Part shown: positions 30,683-36,387 of the stretch, piece by piece
Numbering within the stretch: the stretch's first letter is position 1
How the letters are laid out: the number at the start of each line of letters is the position of its first letter
Assembly (NCBI GenBank): GCA_947478395.1
Contig: CANJVR010000001.1
Span: forward strand, 800,001 to 864,000
Source: Opitutia bacterium
GTDB taxonomy: Bacteria > Verrucomicrobiota > Verrucomicrobiia > Opitutales > Opitutaceae
Reading direction: 5' to 3'
DNA: 64,000 nt
Program-made: the position numbers and the translations under genes
Notes under the pieces: model-generated
Seen by the model: only the letters and a program-made list of their open reading frames with translations
The model's database searches: none
What the model was told of the DNA's origin: nothing

Positions 30683-30823
30683 CCGCTCGTGTTTACGCGG
30701 CGAAAAAGCGGCGGAAGCGGACGGAATGATTCCCACCTTCACTGATTCAGAAAAACAAAACCCGAGGAGTATAATCCTCAAGTTACGGCACGCGGCTCAC
30801 GACTCGGAAAGAGCCGCCAGCGA
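30683..30823 (-). repeat. Structured repeat copy 1 (degenerate; lacks the first hairpin)
   Basis: Shares CCGAGGA..TCCTC and GACTCGGAAAGAGCCGC with copies 2/3, and the left flank CCGCTCGT..GCGGCGGAAGC with copy 2. Confidence 0.75.
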
Positions 30824-30870
30824 GCTCCAACTTGATCTAGTGTGGCCGTAGCTACGGTACAACCACCGTT

Positions 30871-31045
30871 CCGCTCGTTTTTGCCCCGGTGAAACGGCGG
30901 CGGCGGAAGCAGAACTAGCGCCGCCTCCCCTGACTCAGGAAAACGAAAAAACCGAGGACGTTGAATCCTCGGTTTTCGAAACGTCGCCCACAGCTCGAAA
31001 ACGAGCCGCGGGCGACGGTGGGCAGTTAAAAGTTAACTGTTACAG
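30871..31045 (-). repeat. Structured repeat copy 2 (three hairpins ending in an intrinsic terminator), directly after the small ORF stop
   Basis: Core 30938-31045 aligns to 31454-31560 with about 10 substitutions and 1 gap (manual count). Confidence 0.9.
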
Positions 31046-31050
31046 AACAA

Positions 31051-31230
31051 TCAGCGGCTATCGCCATCGTGATCCACATCGCCCGCTGGGACGGCTGGAG
31101 CCGCGGCAGGGGCGGCGGAAGCAGCTTTCGCGGCTTGTTTAGCGGCGATTTGCGCGGCTAGTCTTTCTTGGTAAATAGAGGCGGCATCGCTGCCAGAAGA
31201 AGAACCGTAGCTGCTGATGGAGGAGGACAT
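31051..31230 (-). CDS. Small protein, 59 aa, not in the ORF track: MSSSISSYGSSSGSDAASIYQERLAAQIAAKQAAKAASAAPAAAPAVPAGDVDHDGDSR
   Basis: Manual translation from ATG 31230 to TGA 31051; A-rich translation-initiation region; promoter-like motif upstream and terminator element downstream. Confidence 0.75.
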   Translation of the reverse strand: MSSSISSYGSSSGSDAASIYQERLAAQIAAKQAAKAASAAPAAAPAVPAGDVDHDGDSR

Positions 31231-31302
31231 TTTATTTTGTCTTTAAGGAACTGCTGGGAGCTATTGGCGGTTAACACCGGCATGAAAGCTCCTGTTACCT
31301 AC

Positions 31303-31329
31303 CTAACGGTTAATTATGAATTTACTTAA
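31303..31329 (-). promoter_or_regulatory. Candidate sigma28 (FliA)-type promoter
   Basis: TTAAGTAA-N11-ACCGTTAG versus consensus TAAAGTTT-N11-GCCGATAA. Confidence 0.45.
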
Positions 31330-31424
31330 GGCATAGCTCTTGGCTGAGGCATAATAGTTTGCGAGGTGCCACCCTAGGAACGCGGGGCATGCACCCTGCC
31401 GCAGATAAATGCCGATGGAGAAAC

Positions 31425-31560
31425 CGGAGCTAGCGTCGCCTGCGCTCTCATTCGGAAAACGAAAAAACCGAGGACGTTAAATCCTCGGTTTTCGGAACGC
31501 CGCTCATGACTCGGAAAGAGCCGCGAGCGACGGTGGGCAGTTAAAAGTTAACTGTTATAG
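31425..31560 (-). repeat. Structured repeat copy 3 = glnII 3' UTR/terminator
   Basis: Begins 5 nt after the glnII stop: CAGTTAA-ctt-TTAACTG hairpin, a long second hairpin, then AAAACCGAGGA-loop-TCCTCGGTTTTTT with U-tract. Confidence 0.9.
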
Positions 31561-31565
31561 GAATC

Positions 31566-32603
31566 TTACTTCGTCGGGACGGACTGGATCGTTTTTACGA
31601 TGCGACCGGCCACGAGGTACGGATCGGCCGCGGAGTTCGGACGACGGTCCTCGAGGTAGCCCTTATAGCCGGCGTTGACGAAGCTGTGCGGCATACGGAC
31701 CGACGCGCCGCGGTCGGCGAGACCGTAGCTGAACTTGTCGATCGACTGGGTCTCGTGAAGGCCAGTGAGGCGGAGGTGATTCTCCGGGCCGTAAACGGCG
31801 ATGTGCTCGTCGCGGTATTTGTTGAAGGCTGCCATGAGTTTCTCGAAGTAGGCCTTGCCGCCTTTTTCGCGCAGGAACTTCGTCGAGAAGTTCGCATGCA
31901 TACCGGAGCCGTTCCAGTCGAGCGGCTGGTTGAACGGTGCGAGGATGGGCTTACAGCGCCATTCGATATCGATGCAATAGGCCTCGGCCAGACGAGCGAG
32001 AATGTAACGGGCGACCCACATTTGGTCGGCGGCGTTCTTGGAGCCTTTGCCGAAGATCTGGAATTCCCACTGGCCCTTGGCGACCTCGGCATTGATGCCC
32101 TCGAGGTTGATGCCGGCATCGAGACAGATATCGATGTGCTTCTCGACAATCTCACGAGCAACCGCGCCGACATTCTTGTAGCCAACGCCGGTGTAGTAAG
32201 GACCTTGGGGCGCCGGGAAACCGCCGCCCACTGGGAACCCGAGCGGAACGCCGTCCTGGTAAAAGAAATATTCCTGCTCGAAGCCAAACCACGTATCAGG
32301 ATCATCCGGGATCGTGGCGCGGGAGTTTGACACGTGCGGGGTTTTCCCGTCCGGCATCATGACCTCGCACATCACCAGCACGCCATTCTTGCGCGTGCTG
32401 TCAGGATATACCGCCACCGGCCTCAACACGCAGTCGGAGCTTCTGCCCTCGGCCTGCTGCGTCGAGCTGCCATCGAAGCCCCAGTTGGGGAGCTCTTCGA
32501 GCTTTGGAAGGCTCTTAAACTCTTTGATCTGGGTCTTGCTGCGGAGACTGGCCAACGGCTTGTAGCCATCCAGCCAGATGTATTCTAATTTATATTTAGC
32601 CAT
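31566..32603 (-). CDS. glnII: Glutamine synthetase type II
   Basis: 345 aa; EYIWLDG, WGFDGSST, GFEQEY, NAEVAKGQWEFQ, DWNGSGMHANFST, RLTGLHET, EDRRP. Confidence 0.95.
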   Translation of the reverse strand: MAKYKLEYIWLDGYKPLASLRSKTQIKEFKSLPKLEELPNWGFDGSSTQQAEGRSSDCVLRPVAVYPDSTRKNGVLVMCEVMMPDGKTPHVSNSRATIPDDPDTWFGFEQEYFFYQDGVPLGFPVGGGFPAPQGPYYTGVGYKNVGAVAREIVEKHIDICLDAGINLEGINAEVAKGQWEFQIFGKGSKNAADQMWVARYILARLAEAYCIDIEWRCKPILAPFNQPLDWNGSGMHANFSTKFLREKGGKAYFEKLMAAFNKYRDEHIAVYGPENHLRLTGLHETQSIDKFSYGLADRGASVRMPHSFVNAGYKGYLEDRRPNSAADPYLVAGRIVKTIQSVPTK

Positions 32604-32692
32604 AGGAGTGCGGGTTTTGGAGGAGTCTCACATGAACCCGCCAACCACGATAGTTGGATGACGGAGCCCACGGGAAAACCCAGAACGTATTC

Positions 32693-32708
32693 AGCACCTG
32701 ACATGCCA
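32693..32708 (-). promoter_or_regulatory. sigma54 (-24/-12) promoter of glnII
   Basis: TGGCATGTCAGGTGCT: GG-N10-GC spacing, about 90 nt upstream of the GS start. Confidence 0.7.
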
Positions 32709-32829
32709 GCGGCAACTAGAAATTCGGCCTATGCGACAGGTTTTTTTCAAAAAAACCACCCAAGCCATCGTCACCCCTTGCTCCAGGACCCCAACCCCCC
32801 ACAGTAGGGGTCTCCGACGTCGCCGCGCC

Positions 32830-33249
32830 ATGCATGAAGTCAAAGACACCCAGCGCGCCGTCGTTCGCATCGGCTACGATGGCCGGGTGCACAAGACCTT
32901 CCGCGGACCCAAGGCCCAGGAACGCTTCGACAACGAGGTTCGCGTGCTTCGCCACTTGGAGCAACGGGCCTGCGACTTTGTGCCCCGGCTGATCGAAGTC
33001 GATCCGGCGGCACTGAAGATCATCACCACAAACTGCGGCTCCATCGTCCAGCAGCTCGATCCGCAAAGGATGCAGGAACTGTTTGCCGAACTCGCCCAGT
33101 ACGGCGTCCGCCACGACGACGCGTTCCTCCGCAACGTGACCTATCGCGCAACCGACGGTCGGTTTTGTCTCATCGATTTCGAGTTCGCCACCCTCCTTGA
33201 CGAAACCAAAATCGCCGACGCGAAGGCCAAGCCTCTTCCGAAAAATTGA
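32830..33249 (+). CDS. Minimal protein-kinase-like protein (139 aa)
   Basis: VHK (beta3 Lys), FDNE (helix C Glu), HDDAFLRN (HxDxxxxN), LIDFE (DFG-like). Confidence 0.75.
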   Translation: MHEVKDTQRAVVRIGYDGRVHKTFRGPKAQERFDNEVRVLRHLEQRACDFVPRLIEVDPAALKIITTNCGSIVQQLDPQRMQELFAELAQYGVRHDDAFLRNVTYRATDGRFCLIDFEFATLLDETKIADAKAKPLPKN

Positions 33250-34112
33250 TGCCCCCACCTCGTCGCCTCCCTTCGACCGACCATCCCCACCCCGATCTTC
33301 GCTGGTCCGGCCTCACGCATCGCGGTCACGTCCGGACCAACAACGAGGACAACTTTCTCGCGCTCGCGTTCGACAGCCGCGAAATCCGCTACCTCGGCAA
33401 AACCGGCGAGGCTTCGTCAGCGGAAAACGATTTCGTCTTTGCGGTCAGCGATGGCATGGGCGGCGCGAAATCGGGCGAGTTTGCCAGCCGCATCACTCTG
33501 GACCGCATCACCCGGTTGCTGCCGAAAAGCTTTCACCTCGGCGCGCAAGGCCTCGCCAGCGGGTTCGCCGATATCCTTCAAGAATTGTTCAGCGAAATTC
33601 ATGACGATCTCATGCACCTCGGCCGCAGCTACGAGGAATGCTCCGGCATGGGCACGACTCTAAGTCTCGCCTGGATCACCCCGGGATCGGTTTATTTTGG
33701 CCACATCGGCGACAGCCGGATCTATTTTCTGCCCCGACTCGGCGGTCTTATTCAACTGACGCATGATCATTCGCACGTCGGCTGGCTCCACCGTCAGGGT
33801 CAAATCAACGAGCGGGAGGCCCGCTCCCACCCTATGCGAAACGCGCTCCATCAGGCACTCGGCTCCGGCCACCAGCTGATCGATCCGCAGTTTGGCACCA
33901 TGGCGTGCTCCCCGGGCGATCGCTTTCTAATTTGCTCGGACGGCCTCGTGGACGGCCTCTGGGACCGGCAACTGGAGGAAATTATCCGCGAGCCGGGCGC
34001 CGGGCCGATCGCCCAGCGCCTCGTGCATGCGTCGCTAGAAAATTCGGGTAAAGACAACACCACCGCCGTCGTCGTCGAGATCCTCGGCGGAGCGGAGGCG
34101 AGCCCAGGTTAG
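33249..34112 (+). CDS. PP2C/PPM-family Ser/Thr phosphatase
   Basis: GHVRTNNED, VSDGMGG, GMGTT, HIGDSR, CSDGL, GKDNTT; TGATG overlap with the kinase stop. Confidence 0.93.
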   Translation: MPPPRRLPSTDHPHPDLRWSGLTHRGHVRTNNEDNFLALAFDSREIRYLGKTGEASSAENDFVFAVSDGMGGAKSGEFASRITLDRITRLLPKSFHLGAQGLASGFADILQELFSEIHDDLMHLGRSYEECSGMGTTLSLAWITPGSVYFGHIGDSRIYFLPRLGGLIQLTHDHSHVGWLHRQGQINEREARSHPMRNALHQALGSGHQLIDPQFGTMACSPGDRFLICSDGLVDGLWDRQLEEIIREPGAGPIAQRLVHASLENSGKDNTTAVVVEILGGAEASPG

Positions 34113-34126
34113 ACCCCGATCGGCCC

Positions 34127-34498
34127 ATGCCATTGCTCTTTGTCTACGGCACGTTGAAACGCGACGGTCCTAATCACGCTCACCTCGCCCTTCAGAAACT
34201 GATCGGCGCGGCGCGCACGGCGCAGGGGTTTACGCTGTATTCCCTTGGGGATTATCCCGGAATGGTGCGAGCGCCGGACGATCACGACGGTGTCACCGGT
34301 GAAGTCTGGGCGGTCGATGAAGCCTGCTTGCAACGCCTCGATCACCTCGAAGGCGTCGCCGAAAATCTTTACCGACGCGGTCCGGTTCCGCTCCGGGATC
34401 CGTTCGAAGCGTCCACGGTTCAAACCTATTTCTATCTGAGGCCCATAGCGGCGCGACCGCACGTCGGCGCGACTTGGCGCGGGGACGCGAACACGTGA
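34127..34498 (+). CDS. Gamma-glutamylcyclotransferase (AIG2-like) family protein
   Basis: LFVYGTLK, YPG, VTGEV, LDHLEG...YRR. Confidence 0.88.
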   Translation: MPLLFVYGTLKRDGPNHAHLALQKLIGAARTAQGFTLYSLGDYPGMVRAPDDHDGVTGEVWAVDEACLQRLDHLEGVAENLYRRGPVPLRDPFEASTVQTYFYLRPIAARPHVGATWRGDANT

Positions 34499-34528: not shown

Positions 34529-34997
34529 TTAGGTCTTTTCCAGATCTCGGGCTGCCACCCGTCGCACCACGGTAAATTTCGCTCGAAAAAGATCTTCCAG
34601 CGTTTCACGCACCTCGGCCGGAATCCTACTCACCAGTGAATCGAGCGAAGGCAGGGGTGCCTTGGCCGCGTCGGTTTCCTCCGGCGGAGCGGCCGACCCG
34701 GATACGACCGGCGTGACAGGCCCGCTGGGCTCCACCGCTAAAATGGGCCAGGCCGCGGCGCTGAATTCTTCAGTGGGCCACGGGGCCTCGTCATCGCCTC
34801 CCACGGGTGGTGCAACGGCTCCGGCCGCCAGCGCGGGCGCCGAGGCGCGGGTAACGGATGGCGCGTTTACGGCCTCTGAAAAATTCGCCACGGCCACCGG
34901 GCGGCTGACCTCAGCTGCCGATGGCGTCGCGCCCTTGTTATCCGAGTTCCGTGCCAGCGCGGTCTCTAGCCGTTGCTCCAACCGATCAATCAGGCCT
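34529..34997 (-). CDS. Probable C-terminal (tau-specific) part of DnaX, reached by a -1 shift at the A10 run
   Basis: Open -1 frame from the A-run ([11 protein letters not shown]...), Ala/Pro linker, terminal helical segment [17 protein letters not shown]; no ATG start, only TTG at 34981. Confidence 0.65.
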
Positions 34998-36180
34998 TTT
35001 TTTTTTCGCCTTCGTTGTCCGCGCCCACGACGGCCGGCGCGGTTTCGTCGGCGAGAGCGGCCAGTTCCTTGATCAAGCTGTCGATGGCCCGTGAACGGCT
35101 CGCATCGATGGCTTTCAGGAGCGTCACTTCGAAATTAATTTTTTCCGCCAACCCGAGTTTCACACTGCCTTCGCCCTCGCGTAGTCCATCAAGGAGGCGG
35201 GTCAGCTGCTCGGTCGTCATCGACCCGGCGGCCGCGCCACGGCCGGCCGCACGACCCAGCATTTCGCTCTTTCCGCCGTGAGCGATGGCGTCGAGCAGAG
35301 CGTGGCGTACGACGGCCTGCAGATCGGACAGGAGCCGCACGAGATCGCGCCCGGCGCGGTCGCACTCATCGACGATCGCGACGAGGCGCGCGTGATCCCC
35401 GGTCGCGAGCGTGGCCGCGAGTTCGGCCACCTTCTCCGCCGACACCAGGCCGTAGACATCGAGCACATCCGGCTCGGCGATCTCGGCCCCGCAGAAAGAA
35501 ATCATCTGGTCGAAGACCGACTGCGCATCGCGCATCCCGCCGTCGGCCATGCGCGCGATGCAGGCGAGCGCCTCGTCCGTCACTTTGATTTTCTCCTCAA
35601 CCGCGATTTTCTTCAGGCGCTCGACAATCAAATCCGCGGGGATGGGCTTCAGATCGAAGCGCTGACAGCGCGAGAGTATCGTCGGCAGAACTTTCTGCAC
35701 CTCGGTCGTGGCGAAGACGAACTTCACGTGCGGCGGCGGCTCCTCGAGCGTCTTCAGCAAAGCGTTAAACGCCTGCGGCGAGAGCATGTGCACCTCGTCG
35801 ATGATGTAGACCTTGAACTTGCCTTGCGCCGGCGAGTACCGCGCGGTTTCCCGCAGGTCGCGCACTTGGTCGACGCCGTTGTTTGAGGCGCCGTCGATTT
35901 CGATGACATCGAGATGCGAACCTTCCGCAATGGCCACGCACGCGGGATCGTTGACGTCAAAGTCTGCCTTCGGTCCGTCCGTGCAATTCAGCGCCTTCGC
36001 GAAGATGCGCGCGGTTGACGTTTTTCCGGTGCCGCGCGGGCCGACGAAAAGATAGGCGTGGGCAATCCGGCCGCGAGTGATCGCATTCTTCAGCGTGCGA
36101 ACAACGTGATCCTGCCCCACCACGTCGTCGAACGTCTGGGGCCGCCACTTGCGCGCGATGACTTGATAGGAAGAGGACAT
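34990..36180 (-). CDS. dnaX: DNA polymerase III subunit gamma/tau (zero-frame product, 396 aa)
   Basis: [48 protein letters not shown]. Confidence 0.97.
34996..35006 (-). other. Slippery site: A10 run containing A_AAA_AAG
   Basis: Minus strand reads GGC GAA AAA AAA AAG GCC TGA. Confidence 0.7.
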
Positions 36181-36291
36181 CTCAGGATGGAGGGGCCGCC
36201 GGCCGGCTACGGGGAGAGCAACGGAACCATGGCATCGCTGGCAAGCAAGCTCCTACCGCCGCTCAGATCCGATTCGCTCGGCAAAAAAAGT

Positions 36292-36387
36292 GGCCAGGCA
36301 CTCCACGGCACTGGGAGGACGTCGTTACCGTTGCTGCCTTCCGGCCCTGGCGGGGTTCACGCGCCTGCCCATGCATGGCACCTGGCC
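36292..36387 (-). ncRNA. ffs: Signal recognition particle RNA (small 4.5S type)
   Basis: GAACCCCGCCAGGGCCGGAAGGCAGCAACGG domain IV; terminal stem GGCCAGG/CCTGGCC; T7 tail; usual position upstream of dnaX. Confidence 0.93.

Follow-up and report, generated by a model that had tools for sequence, protein, structure and literature searches.

Type I glutamine synthetase (GSI) is controlled by GlnE adenylylation, whereas the type II enzyme (GSII) is not, and we know of no established enzymatic answer to how bacteria without GlnE shut off GSII quickly. In rhizobia, gstI, the gene of a translational inhibitor of GSII, is divergent from glnII (available text of PMC8829014). In mammals, PKA inactivates GS by phosphorylating the glutamate-flap residue T301 (available text of PMC6536897), and kinases with subdomains I–VII alone are active, as reported for OspG and NleH in the accessible parts of PMC3585378 and PMC12756638. 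Here we describe a locus of an Opitutia bacterium in which a mini-kinase and a PP2C phosphatase are encoded divergent from glnII. On sequence comparison, this pair is probably an undescribed on/off switch for the main nitrogen-assimilating enzyme of the cell; no description of a mini-kinase/PP2C/GSII system was found in the open-access full text searched.

The window, a stretch of 64,000 nucleotides (contig CANJVR010000001.1, positions 800,001 to 864,000), derives from a genome that falls among the Opitutaceae by its relatives. The mini-kinase gene (32830–33249, + strand) encodes 139 aa, of which approximately 125 form the core. It is followed by the gene for the cognate PP2C/PPM phosphatase (33249–34112, +; 287 aa, PF13672 over the cut-off) and a gene for a GGACT/YtfP-like gamma-glutamylcyclotransferase (GGCT; 34127–34498, +; 123 aa, PF06094). 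On the other strand lies glnII (31566–32603, −; 345 aa), and the divergent intergenic region (32604–32829) measures 226 nt, close to the approximately 225 nt given in the original prediction, which was made from the sequence alone. The same prediction described an overlap of the kinase ORF with an intact PP2C gene and a GGCT-family gene 14 nt further on, and both are found as described: the kinase TGA (33247–33249) overlaps the PP2C ATG as TGATG, and the GGCT gene starts 14 nt after the PP2C gene ends. Through this overlap, the kinase and PP2C genes are predicted to be translationally coupled. An upstream ATG at 32731, in frame with the kinase ORF, would give a product of 172 aa, and was rejected as the start because the relatives do not use it and align from M1.

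A sigma-54 −24/−12 promoter-like site (32693–32708, −) was identified by pattern match 105 nt upstream of glnII. Such a pattern is present 5' of GSII in 110 of 138 loci (a count that includes some duplicate loci) against 1.7 in shuffles, and rpoN is present in the source genome. No sigma-70-like promoter for the kinase operon was found in the 226-nt divergent region. Three freshwater metatranscriptome contig sets cover only glnII and part of dnaX (shares 0.21, 0.06, and 0.06).

Other features of the window are recorded here for completeness. Three copies of a 64-nt hairpin-containing repeat (61–88% alike) and, placed after it, two copies of a 46-nt repeat occur at 30747–31560; the last copy is also the terminator-like site 3' of glnII, and a short Ser/Ala-rich ORF between repeat copies (approximately 31230–31050, −) was spotted by eye. 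A bacterial small SRP RNA (36289–36387, −) lies upstream of dnaX (36180–34990, −). The latter stops at 396 aa just past an A9 run, and a second ORF of 150 aa in another frame comes after its end (region of interest 34973–35281), a possible case of programmed frameshift or slippage yielding tau and gamma forms.

The glnII product is assigned by its sequence to GSII, the eukaryote-type GS of approximately 345 aa. All 16 of its PDB matches are GSII-type, and it is 72% identical to the GS of Sinorhizobium meliloti pSymB and 70–73% to rhizobial GSIIs, with a score on NF041605 (372) that is under the cut-off of 500. It is the only glutamine synthetase found in the source genome, in which neither GSI nor GSIII was found; GlnE was not found there either, the GlnE match being by eye a GlnD-like protein.

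The kinase ORF contains the catalytic elements originally predicted, K22 (beta3), E36 (helix C), H95-x-D97-x4-N102 (HDDAFLRN), and D116-F-E, and ends 21 residues after DFE. A truncated pseudogene had been named as one outcome that would undo the prediction, but the homologs are equally short. In a search limited to 76–244 aa, 7987 of the 8000 scored candidates were homologs; the best 120 measure 127–183 aa (median 136 aa). The motif pattern matched in 118 of these closest homologs, and there the stretch past DxE has a median length of 18 residues. A length-unrestricted search gave 296 clusters. Among the 150 of these that were listed, 19 extend into PP2C, including 13 complete fusion proteins 381–420 aa in length, and no kinase C-lobe was recognized by eye in homologs longer than 190 aa. 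Conservation was counted over 145 kinases and 96 GSIIs, with locus L114 left out. Within the kinases, K22 (144/145), E36 (143/145), D97 (141/145), N102 (144/145), D116 (145/145), F117 (144/145), and E118 (144/145) are nearly invariant, and the catalytic residues are retained in all 125 locus kinases.

Structural modeling with AlphaFold (pLDDT 90.7) predicts an N-lobe, helix E, the catalytic loop, and the DFE strand, and the model ends in one short helix. The best folds by VIA are RIO2 (Z 12.9), ArkI (12.3), and RIO1 (12.3), which are effectively tied, and ArkI is the top Foldseek match. The AlphaFold/Foldseek comparison suggested along with the prediction thus returned a confident kinase fold, with RIO2, ArkI, and RIO1 nearest. 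The 139-aa protein is a natively short kinase-fold protein with subdomains I–VII only. Its bilobal fold, together with the beta3 Lys, the helix C Glu, and the HxDx4N and DFx motifs, places it in the PKL superfamily. No solved kinase-fold chain among the structural matches listed is as small as its core of approximately 125 residues.

As judged from sequence, the kinase appears to belong to no named kinase family among those tested. PF01636 (APH) is matched with a score of 31.4 against a cut-off of 23.2, over residues 76–122 only (profile positions 150–199 of 239). Across 55 family members, APH is matched by 48 and Kdo by 33, choline-kinase matches occur too, and no RIO1 Pfam match was obtained. 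Membership of the APH/Kdo small-molecule kinases was rejected, as the domain match is partial and does not cover the substrate pocket, and so was membership of Bud32/RIO, whose family HMM cut-offs are not reached (TIGR03724, 23.3 vs. 125; NF011460, 13.2 vs. 199). A Hanks-type Ser/Thr kinase was discarded because subdomains VIII–XI (activation segment, APE, helix F) and an HRDLKPEN-type Lys are missing, and full protein tyrosine kinase membership because the activation-loop and C-lobe substrate-binding segments of that group are absent. NleH1 and OspG are not among the 60 PDB sequence matches shown for the kinase and have middling fold scores.

The position of ArkI in the structural comparison raises the idea that the protein is an RNA kinase like ArkI, with tRNA or the glnII message as its substrate, in a functional echo of GstI. 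ArkI leads in Foldseek and is second by VIA, DFE is common to both proteins, and several surface Arg residues are conserved on the kinase. We nevertheless consider this highly improbable: the HGQ loop and helices 6 and 7 with the YKR motif, as described for ArkI in the available text of PMC9095486, are absent, there is no basic RNA face (which likewise excluded ArkI/AQ578 membership), the core has a median net charge of −2, and the eraser is a protein phosphatase and not KptA.

The catalytic loop is H-[DE]-D across the family. At position 99, two residues past the catalytic Asp, the six commonest states are F, E, D, Y, A, or H, none of them Lys, and R101, four residues past it, is present in 140 of 145 kinases. 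An Arg at D+4 without Lys at D+2 is the arrangement of tyrosine kinases (available text of PMC4771162); this likeness concerns a single residue and is only a hint.

Databases label the kinase gene "serine/threonine protein phosphatase" or Bud32, the latter for many members at JGI; both labels are wrong. A 182-aa homolog (38% identity) occurs on phage-like IMG/VR contigs (L127:416–961 and L128:3001–3549); its catalytic loop is interrupted by a 25-aa insert, and no PP2C match lies nearby. A 142-aa phage cluster of 451 members in Atlas has similar features. The kinase had no match in phage or plasmid records, nor did an IMG/VR search with the single kinase protein give one.

Among the 80 best loci out of 165, 79 have a PP2C gene after the kinase gene, and the sole locus without it ends 40 nt past the kinase. 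In 33 of 125 loci, the two are one ORF, joined by a variable linker of 14–40 aa, so that the conserved kinase/PP2C linkage that was predicted extends to fusion. A tree of weak resolution shows 8 switches between the fused and the split state, at least 2 of which are forced by well-supported branches. The metal-binding motifs of the PP2C (NED, DGMGG, GD-R, DG, and D-N-T) are intact; D34, D68, G69, D155, D231, G232, and D269 are at least 90% conserved (124 sequences), and a family-specific insert is present near residues 40–60. The protein scores 185 on NF033484 (cut-off 230), and mean identity is 59%, compared to 68% for the kinase. All six positive controls carry a cognate PP2C (50–60% identity), whereas none was found in 50 kinase-negative genomes, where the best matches are at most 36% identical. 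Two fusions depart from this picture, P0152 being without PP2C metal motifs and P0205 without kinase catalytic residues.

In Verrucomicrobia, the kinase and PP2C are almost always inherited together with one GSII clade, in a near-perfect pattern. Among 251 Verrucomicrobiae genomes, 106 have the kinase and 105 have GSII; both are present in 104 and neither in 144, leaving 2 with the kinase only and 1 with GSII only, although the compared genomes are kin and such counts overstate independence. The two kinase-only drafts contain no PF00120 or GSIII match at all, which points to assembly gaps. The GSII-only genome, G466, has a GSI gene directly downstream of GSII. The same holds for G325, a planctomycete in a single contig with a 78%-identical GSII but neither kinase nor cognate PP2C, so that both same-clade PVC GSIIs without the kinase have an adjacent GSI. 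In a phylum sample of 201 genomes, which overlaps the set of 251, all 35 kinase genomes have a GSII at ≥68% identity, and 4 more distant GSIIs occur without the kinase. For the Planctomycetota, the kinase was found in 2 of 201 genomes, both with a same-clade GSII, and with none of the 15 more distant GSIIs; the planctomycetes with a fused kinase-PP2C gene carry a same-clade GSII elsewhere in 5 of 5 cases. Other GS types largely exclude the kinase, which is present in 0 of 41 genomes with GSIII, in 8 of 100 with GSI, and in one further genome whose GSI is split. GSII is the sole canonical GS in 97 of the 106 kinase-bearing genomes, and the other 9 also have GSI. Three Opitutaceae with GSIII in place of GSII lack the kinase, GSII, the cognate PP2C, and GGCT alike, and the presence/absence pattern splits several families (f1, f9, f54, and f59).

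Among the 80 best loci out of 165, gene order is kept for GSII in 60, for PP2C in 79, and for GGCT in 51. The kinase and glnII are divergent in 84 of the 104 genomes with both, co-directional in 3, and unlinked in 17, 2 of the unlinked cases lying at contig ends and possibly reflecting breaks. The predicted linkage to glnII therefore stands, and co-occurrence holds even in the 17 genomes where the genes are apart. In G587, the kinase, PP2C, and glnII are on three separate contigs; in G525, the kinase has moved away and PP2C is still beside glnII. A separate observation concerns family f9, where in at least three genomes (loci L112, L165, and L167) the kinase gene directly follows an mgtE-like gene, apart from PP2C and glnII. 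These data bear on the reading that the ORF is a truncated pseudogene, or its company mere synteny inertia. Its short length and the single arrangement in 84 of 104 genomes, which could be passive inheritance, fit such a reading, but it is hardly credible in view of the thousands of equally short homologs, the confident fold, the co-occurrence in the 17 unlinked genomes, the four different arrangements, and the joint absence in the GSIII species; we regard it as largely refuted already.

The pair might alternatively act one level up, on PII or another nitrogen regulator. The source genome has a single PII with Ser49, as in cyanobacteria; cyanobacterial PII phosphorylation is reversed by a PP2C, and to our knowledge the kinase responsible is unidentified. 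We hold a PII target to be very unlikely, as PII is present in 26 of 26 genomes tested, kinase-bearing or not, Ser49 occurs in 12 PII copies of kinase-negative genomes and is Ala in the kinase-positive G398, and the unit co-inherited with the kinase is GSII. Verrucomicrobial PII (L197–L227) has Ser49 like cyanobacterial PII regardless of the kinase, and planctomycete copies have Ala.

GGCT was originally taken as a member of the kinase operon. It is present in 12 of 13 kinase-bearing Opitutaceae and in none of 30 kinase-negative genomes. Of the 37 remaining genomes with the kinase, only 4 have it, in each case unlinked or at a distance. A core role fails on its absence from 33 of the 37 kinase genomes beyond the Opitutaceae; GGCT is an Opitutaceae-specific accessory outside the core module. 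The distribution also weighs on a reading in terms of metabolite repair, in which a small by-product or inhibitor of GSII chemistry (a gamma-glutamyl adduct) is phosphorylated by the kinase and PP2C and GGCT complete the clean-up. The APH, Kdo, and choline-kinase Pfam matches are compatible with this, as are the attachment of GGCT in Opitutaceae and the fact that the three species with GSIII lack both GGCT and the module. It is nonetheless quite improbable, given that these matches span only the catalytic loop to DFE, that the C-lobe forming the APH-type small-molecule pocket is missing, that GGCT was not found in those 33 genomes, that rhizobial GSII does the same chemistry without the module, and that a kinase and a phosphatase on one metabolite would make a futile cycle.

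All kinase-linked GSIIs fall into a single well-supported clade, and the 8 alphaproteobacterial GSIIs sampled belong to it as well. The kinase was found in none of 121 plasmid or chromid records carrying a same-clade GS; as far as these plasmid and chromid records go, same-clade GSII works without the module in rhizobia, where GSI and GstI perhaps cover the need. A DUF2735 gene occupies the gstI position, divergent from glnII, in two rhizobial records, and is presumably gstI. As to the origin of rhizobial glnII, the alphaproteobacterial GSIIs (L130–L132 and L183–L187) nest within Verrucomicrobiae GSII in both of two quick trees. This hints that the donor was verrucomicrobial, although an AU test does not reject PVC GSII monophyly (p 0.32). 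Excluded from the second of these trees and from the AU test were loci L113 and L114 of G081, two GSII copies resembling reciprocal verrucomicrobial/rhizobial chimeras that probably represent misassembly.

No Ser, Thr, or Tyr is conserved in the 96–97 kinase-linked GSIIs yet absent from the 8 rhizobial-type GSIIs. T280 is invariant in the kinase-linked GSIIs (96/96) and equally so in kinase-less ones; Y316 (96/96) is also present in kinase-less GSIIs, and Y313 (94/96) is Trp in most of the sister clade. Residues E266, L282, Q286, D289, and R334 differ from rhizobial GSII, and were rejected as kinase-specific marks because they are mostly common to the kinase-less sister clade and G466.

The kinase and the protein phosphatase accompany a single enzyme and take the place of neither GSI nor GSIII control, which is most simply accounted for by reversible phosphorylation of GSII. 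We therefore favor, at a rough probability of 55%, the reading that the kinase and PP2C are a writer/eraser pair that phosphorylates GSII reversibly, as a substitute for adenylylation by GlnE. Without a peptide-binding C-lobe, the kinase would recognize one folded substrate, GSII, and phosphorylate a residue of its active-site loop, switching the enzyme off at nitrogen excess; PP2C would restore activity under nitrogen scarcity, and the pair would have a role for GSII in PVC bacteria equivalent to that of GlnE adenylylation for GSI. That control runs in this direction is a guess, as is the input signal (GlnD/PII, glutamine, or 2-oxoglutarate). The candidate site is T280 in the GSII glutamate flap, which we assume to correspond to mammalian T301 from the human sequence and the flap range of PMC6536897. 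Tyrosines such as Y316 or Y313 are alternative candidates because of the Arg four residues past the catalytic Asp. Several observations count against phosphorylation of GSII: the absence of a kinase-specific GSII phosphosite, the kinase-less GSIIs of G325 and rhizobia, the 9 of 106 kinase genomes with GSI, the f9 kinases beside an mgtE-like gene, and the best Pfam families and folds, which are small-molecule kinases and RIO/ArkI, respectively, and not typical protein-substrate kinases.

A more specific version would make the approximately 125-residue kinase a bacterial tyrosine kinase that independently gained the PTK-type Arg and phosphorylates a GSII tyrosine near the ATP site, with PP2C as the eraser. 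We regard it as doubtful; if true, it would be the phosphorylation counterpart of GlnE tyrosine adenylylation, letting PVC bacteria live on GSII alone. Unlikely too, though carrying some weight, is an ATP-dependent binding regulator in the style of RIO/Bud32, in which GSII itself stays unphosphorylated and ATP hydrolysis, or phosphorylation of the kinase itself or of PP2C, sets GSII binding or inhibition. RIO and Bud32 proteins are known mainly as ATPases. The top folds RIO2, RIO1, and Bud32, the missing activation segment, the failure to find a GSII-specific phosphosite, and the better conservation of the kinase relative to PP2C (expected of a constrained interface) all speak for such a regulator; yet a PP2C of its own would have no use without a phosphoprotein, all 125 locus kinases retain the complete catalytic Asp/Asn set, and the variable linker of the fusions suits a tether over a fixed kinase-on-phosphatase geometry.

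The favored reading, reversible phosphorylation of GSII, concerns a class of bacteria common in lakes, sea, and soil, in which the two-enzyme module tracks GSII almost perfectly. The three-protein system could be rebuilt in E. coli; it would also establish what a minimal working kinase core consists of and allow substrate recognition without a C-lobe to be tested. New here are the exclusion with respect to GSI and GSIII, the finding that the exceptions have a GSI next to GSII, and the rhizobial counter-case, as well as the restriction of GGCT to a narrow range, the test of PII, and the Arg resembling that of tyrosine kinases.

Compared to known systems, the mini-kinase resembles OspG and NleH in having subdomains I–VII only and no activation segment (available parts of PMC3585378 and PMC12756638), with NleH1 (4lrj, Z 9.6) and OspG (4bvu) among its fold matches. 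Those proteins are secreted T3SS effectors of 160–196 aa that act in host cells, whereas the mini-kinase is chromosomal, with a core of approximately 125 aa, a cognate PP2C, a tie to GSII, and a metabolic gene context. ArkI (AQ578/COG2112, with KptA) shares the small PKL fold, DFE, and a reversible writer/eraser logic (rmsd 2.7 over 113 residues and 25% identity at VIA Z 12.3). It differs in its HGQ loop (available text of PMC9095486), where the mini-kinase has HDDx4N and keeps the catalytic Asp and Asn; the mini-kinase also has neither the YKR motif nor subdomains IX and XI, it is not basic, and its partner is a PP2C. RIO2 (Z 12.9), RIO1 (12.3), and Bud32 (10.9–11.2) give the best structural scores, but the mini-kinase is at least 100 residues shorter, and no ribosome or KEOPS genes were seen alongside it.

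As a regulatory device, the proposed module is like GlnE in being a reversible covalent off-switch of GS whose writer and eraser are often one polypeptide. It differs in its unrelated fold and chemistry and in acting on GSII instead of GSI, and it is largely mutually exclusive with GSI (8 of 100 GSI genomes). GstI of rhizobia is likewise a GSII-specific negative regulator encoded divergent from a same-clade glnII (available text of PMC8829014), but is a translational inhibitor of approximately 60 aa with no kinase or phosphatase. With PKA and T301 of mammalian GS, the proposal shares the switching-off of a type II GS via flap phosphorylation (available text of PMC6536897); PKA, however, is a general eukaryotic kinase with no dedicated gene pair. 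In the Hanks-type operons PrkC/PrpC, Stk1/Stp1, and PknB/PstP, a phosphatase gene also lies beside the kinase gene. Unlike those kinases, the mini-kinase has no membrane anchor, sensor domain, activation loop, or C-lobe, and unlike those operons the module has the kinase first, is often fused, and is tied to one metabolic enzyme.
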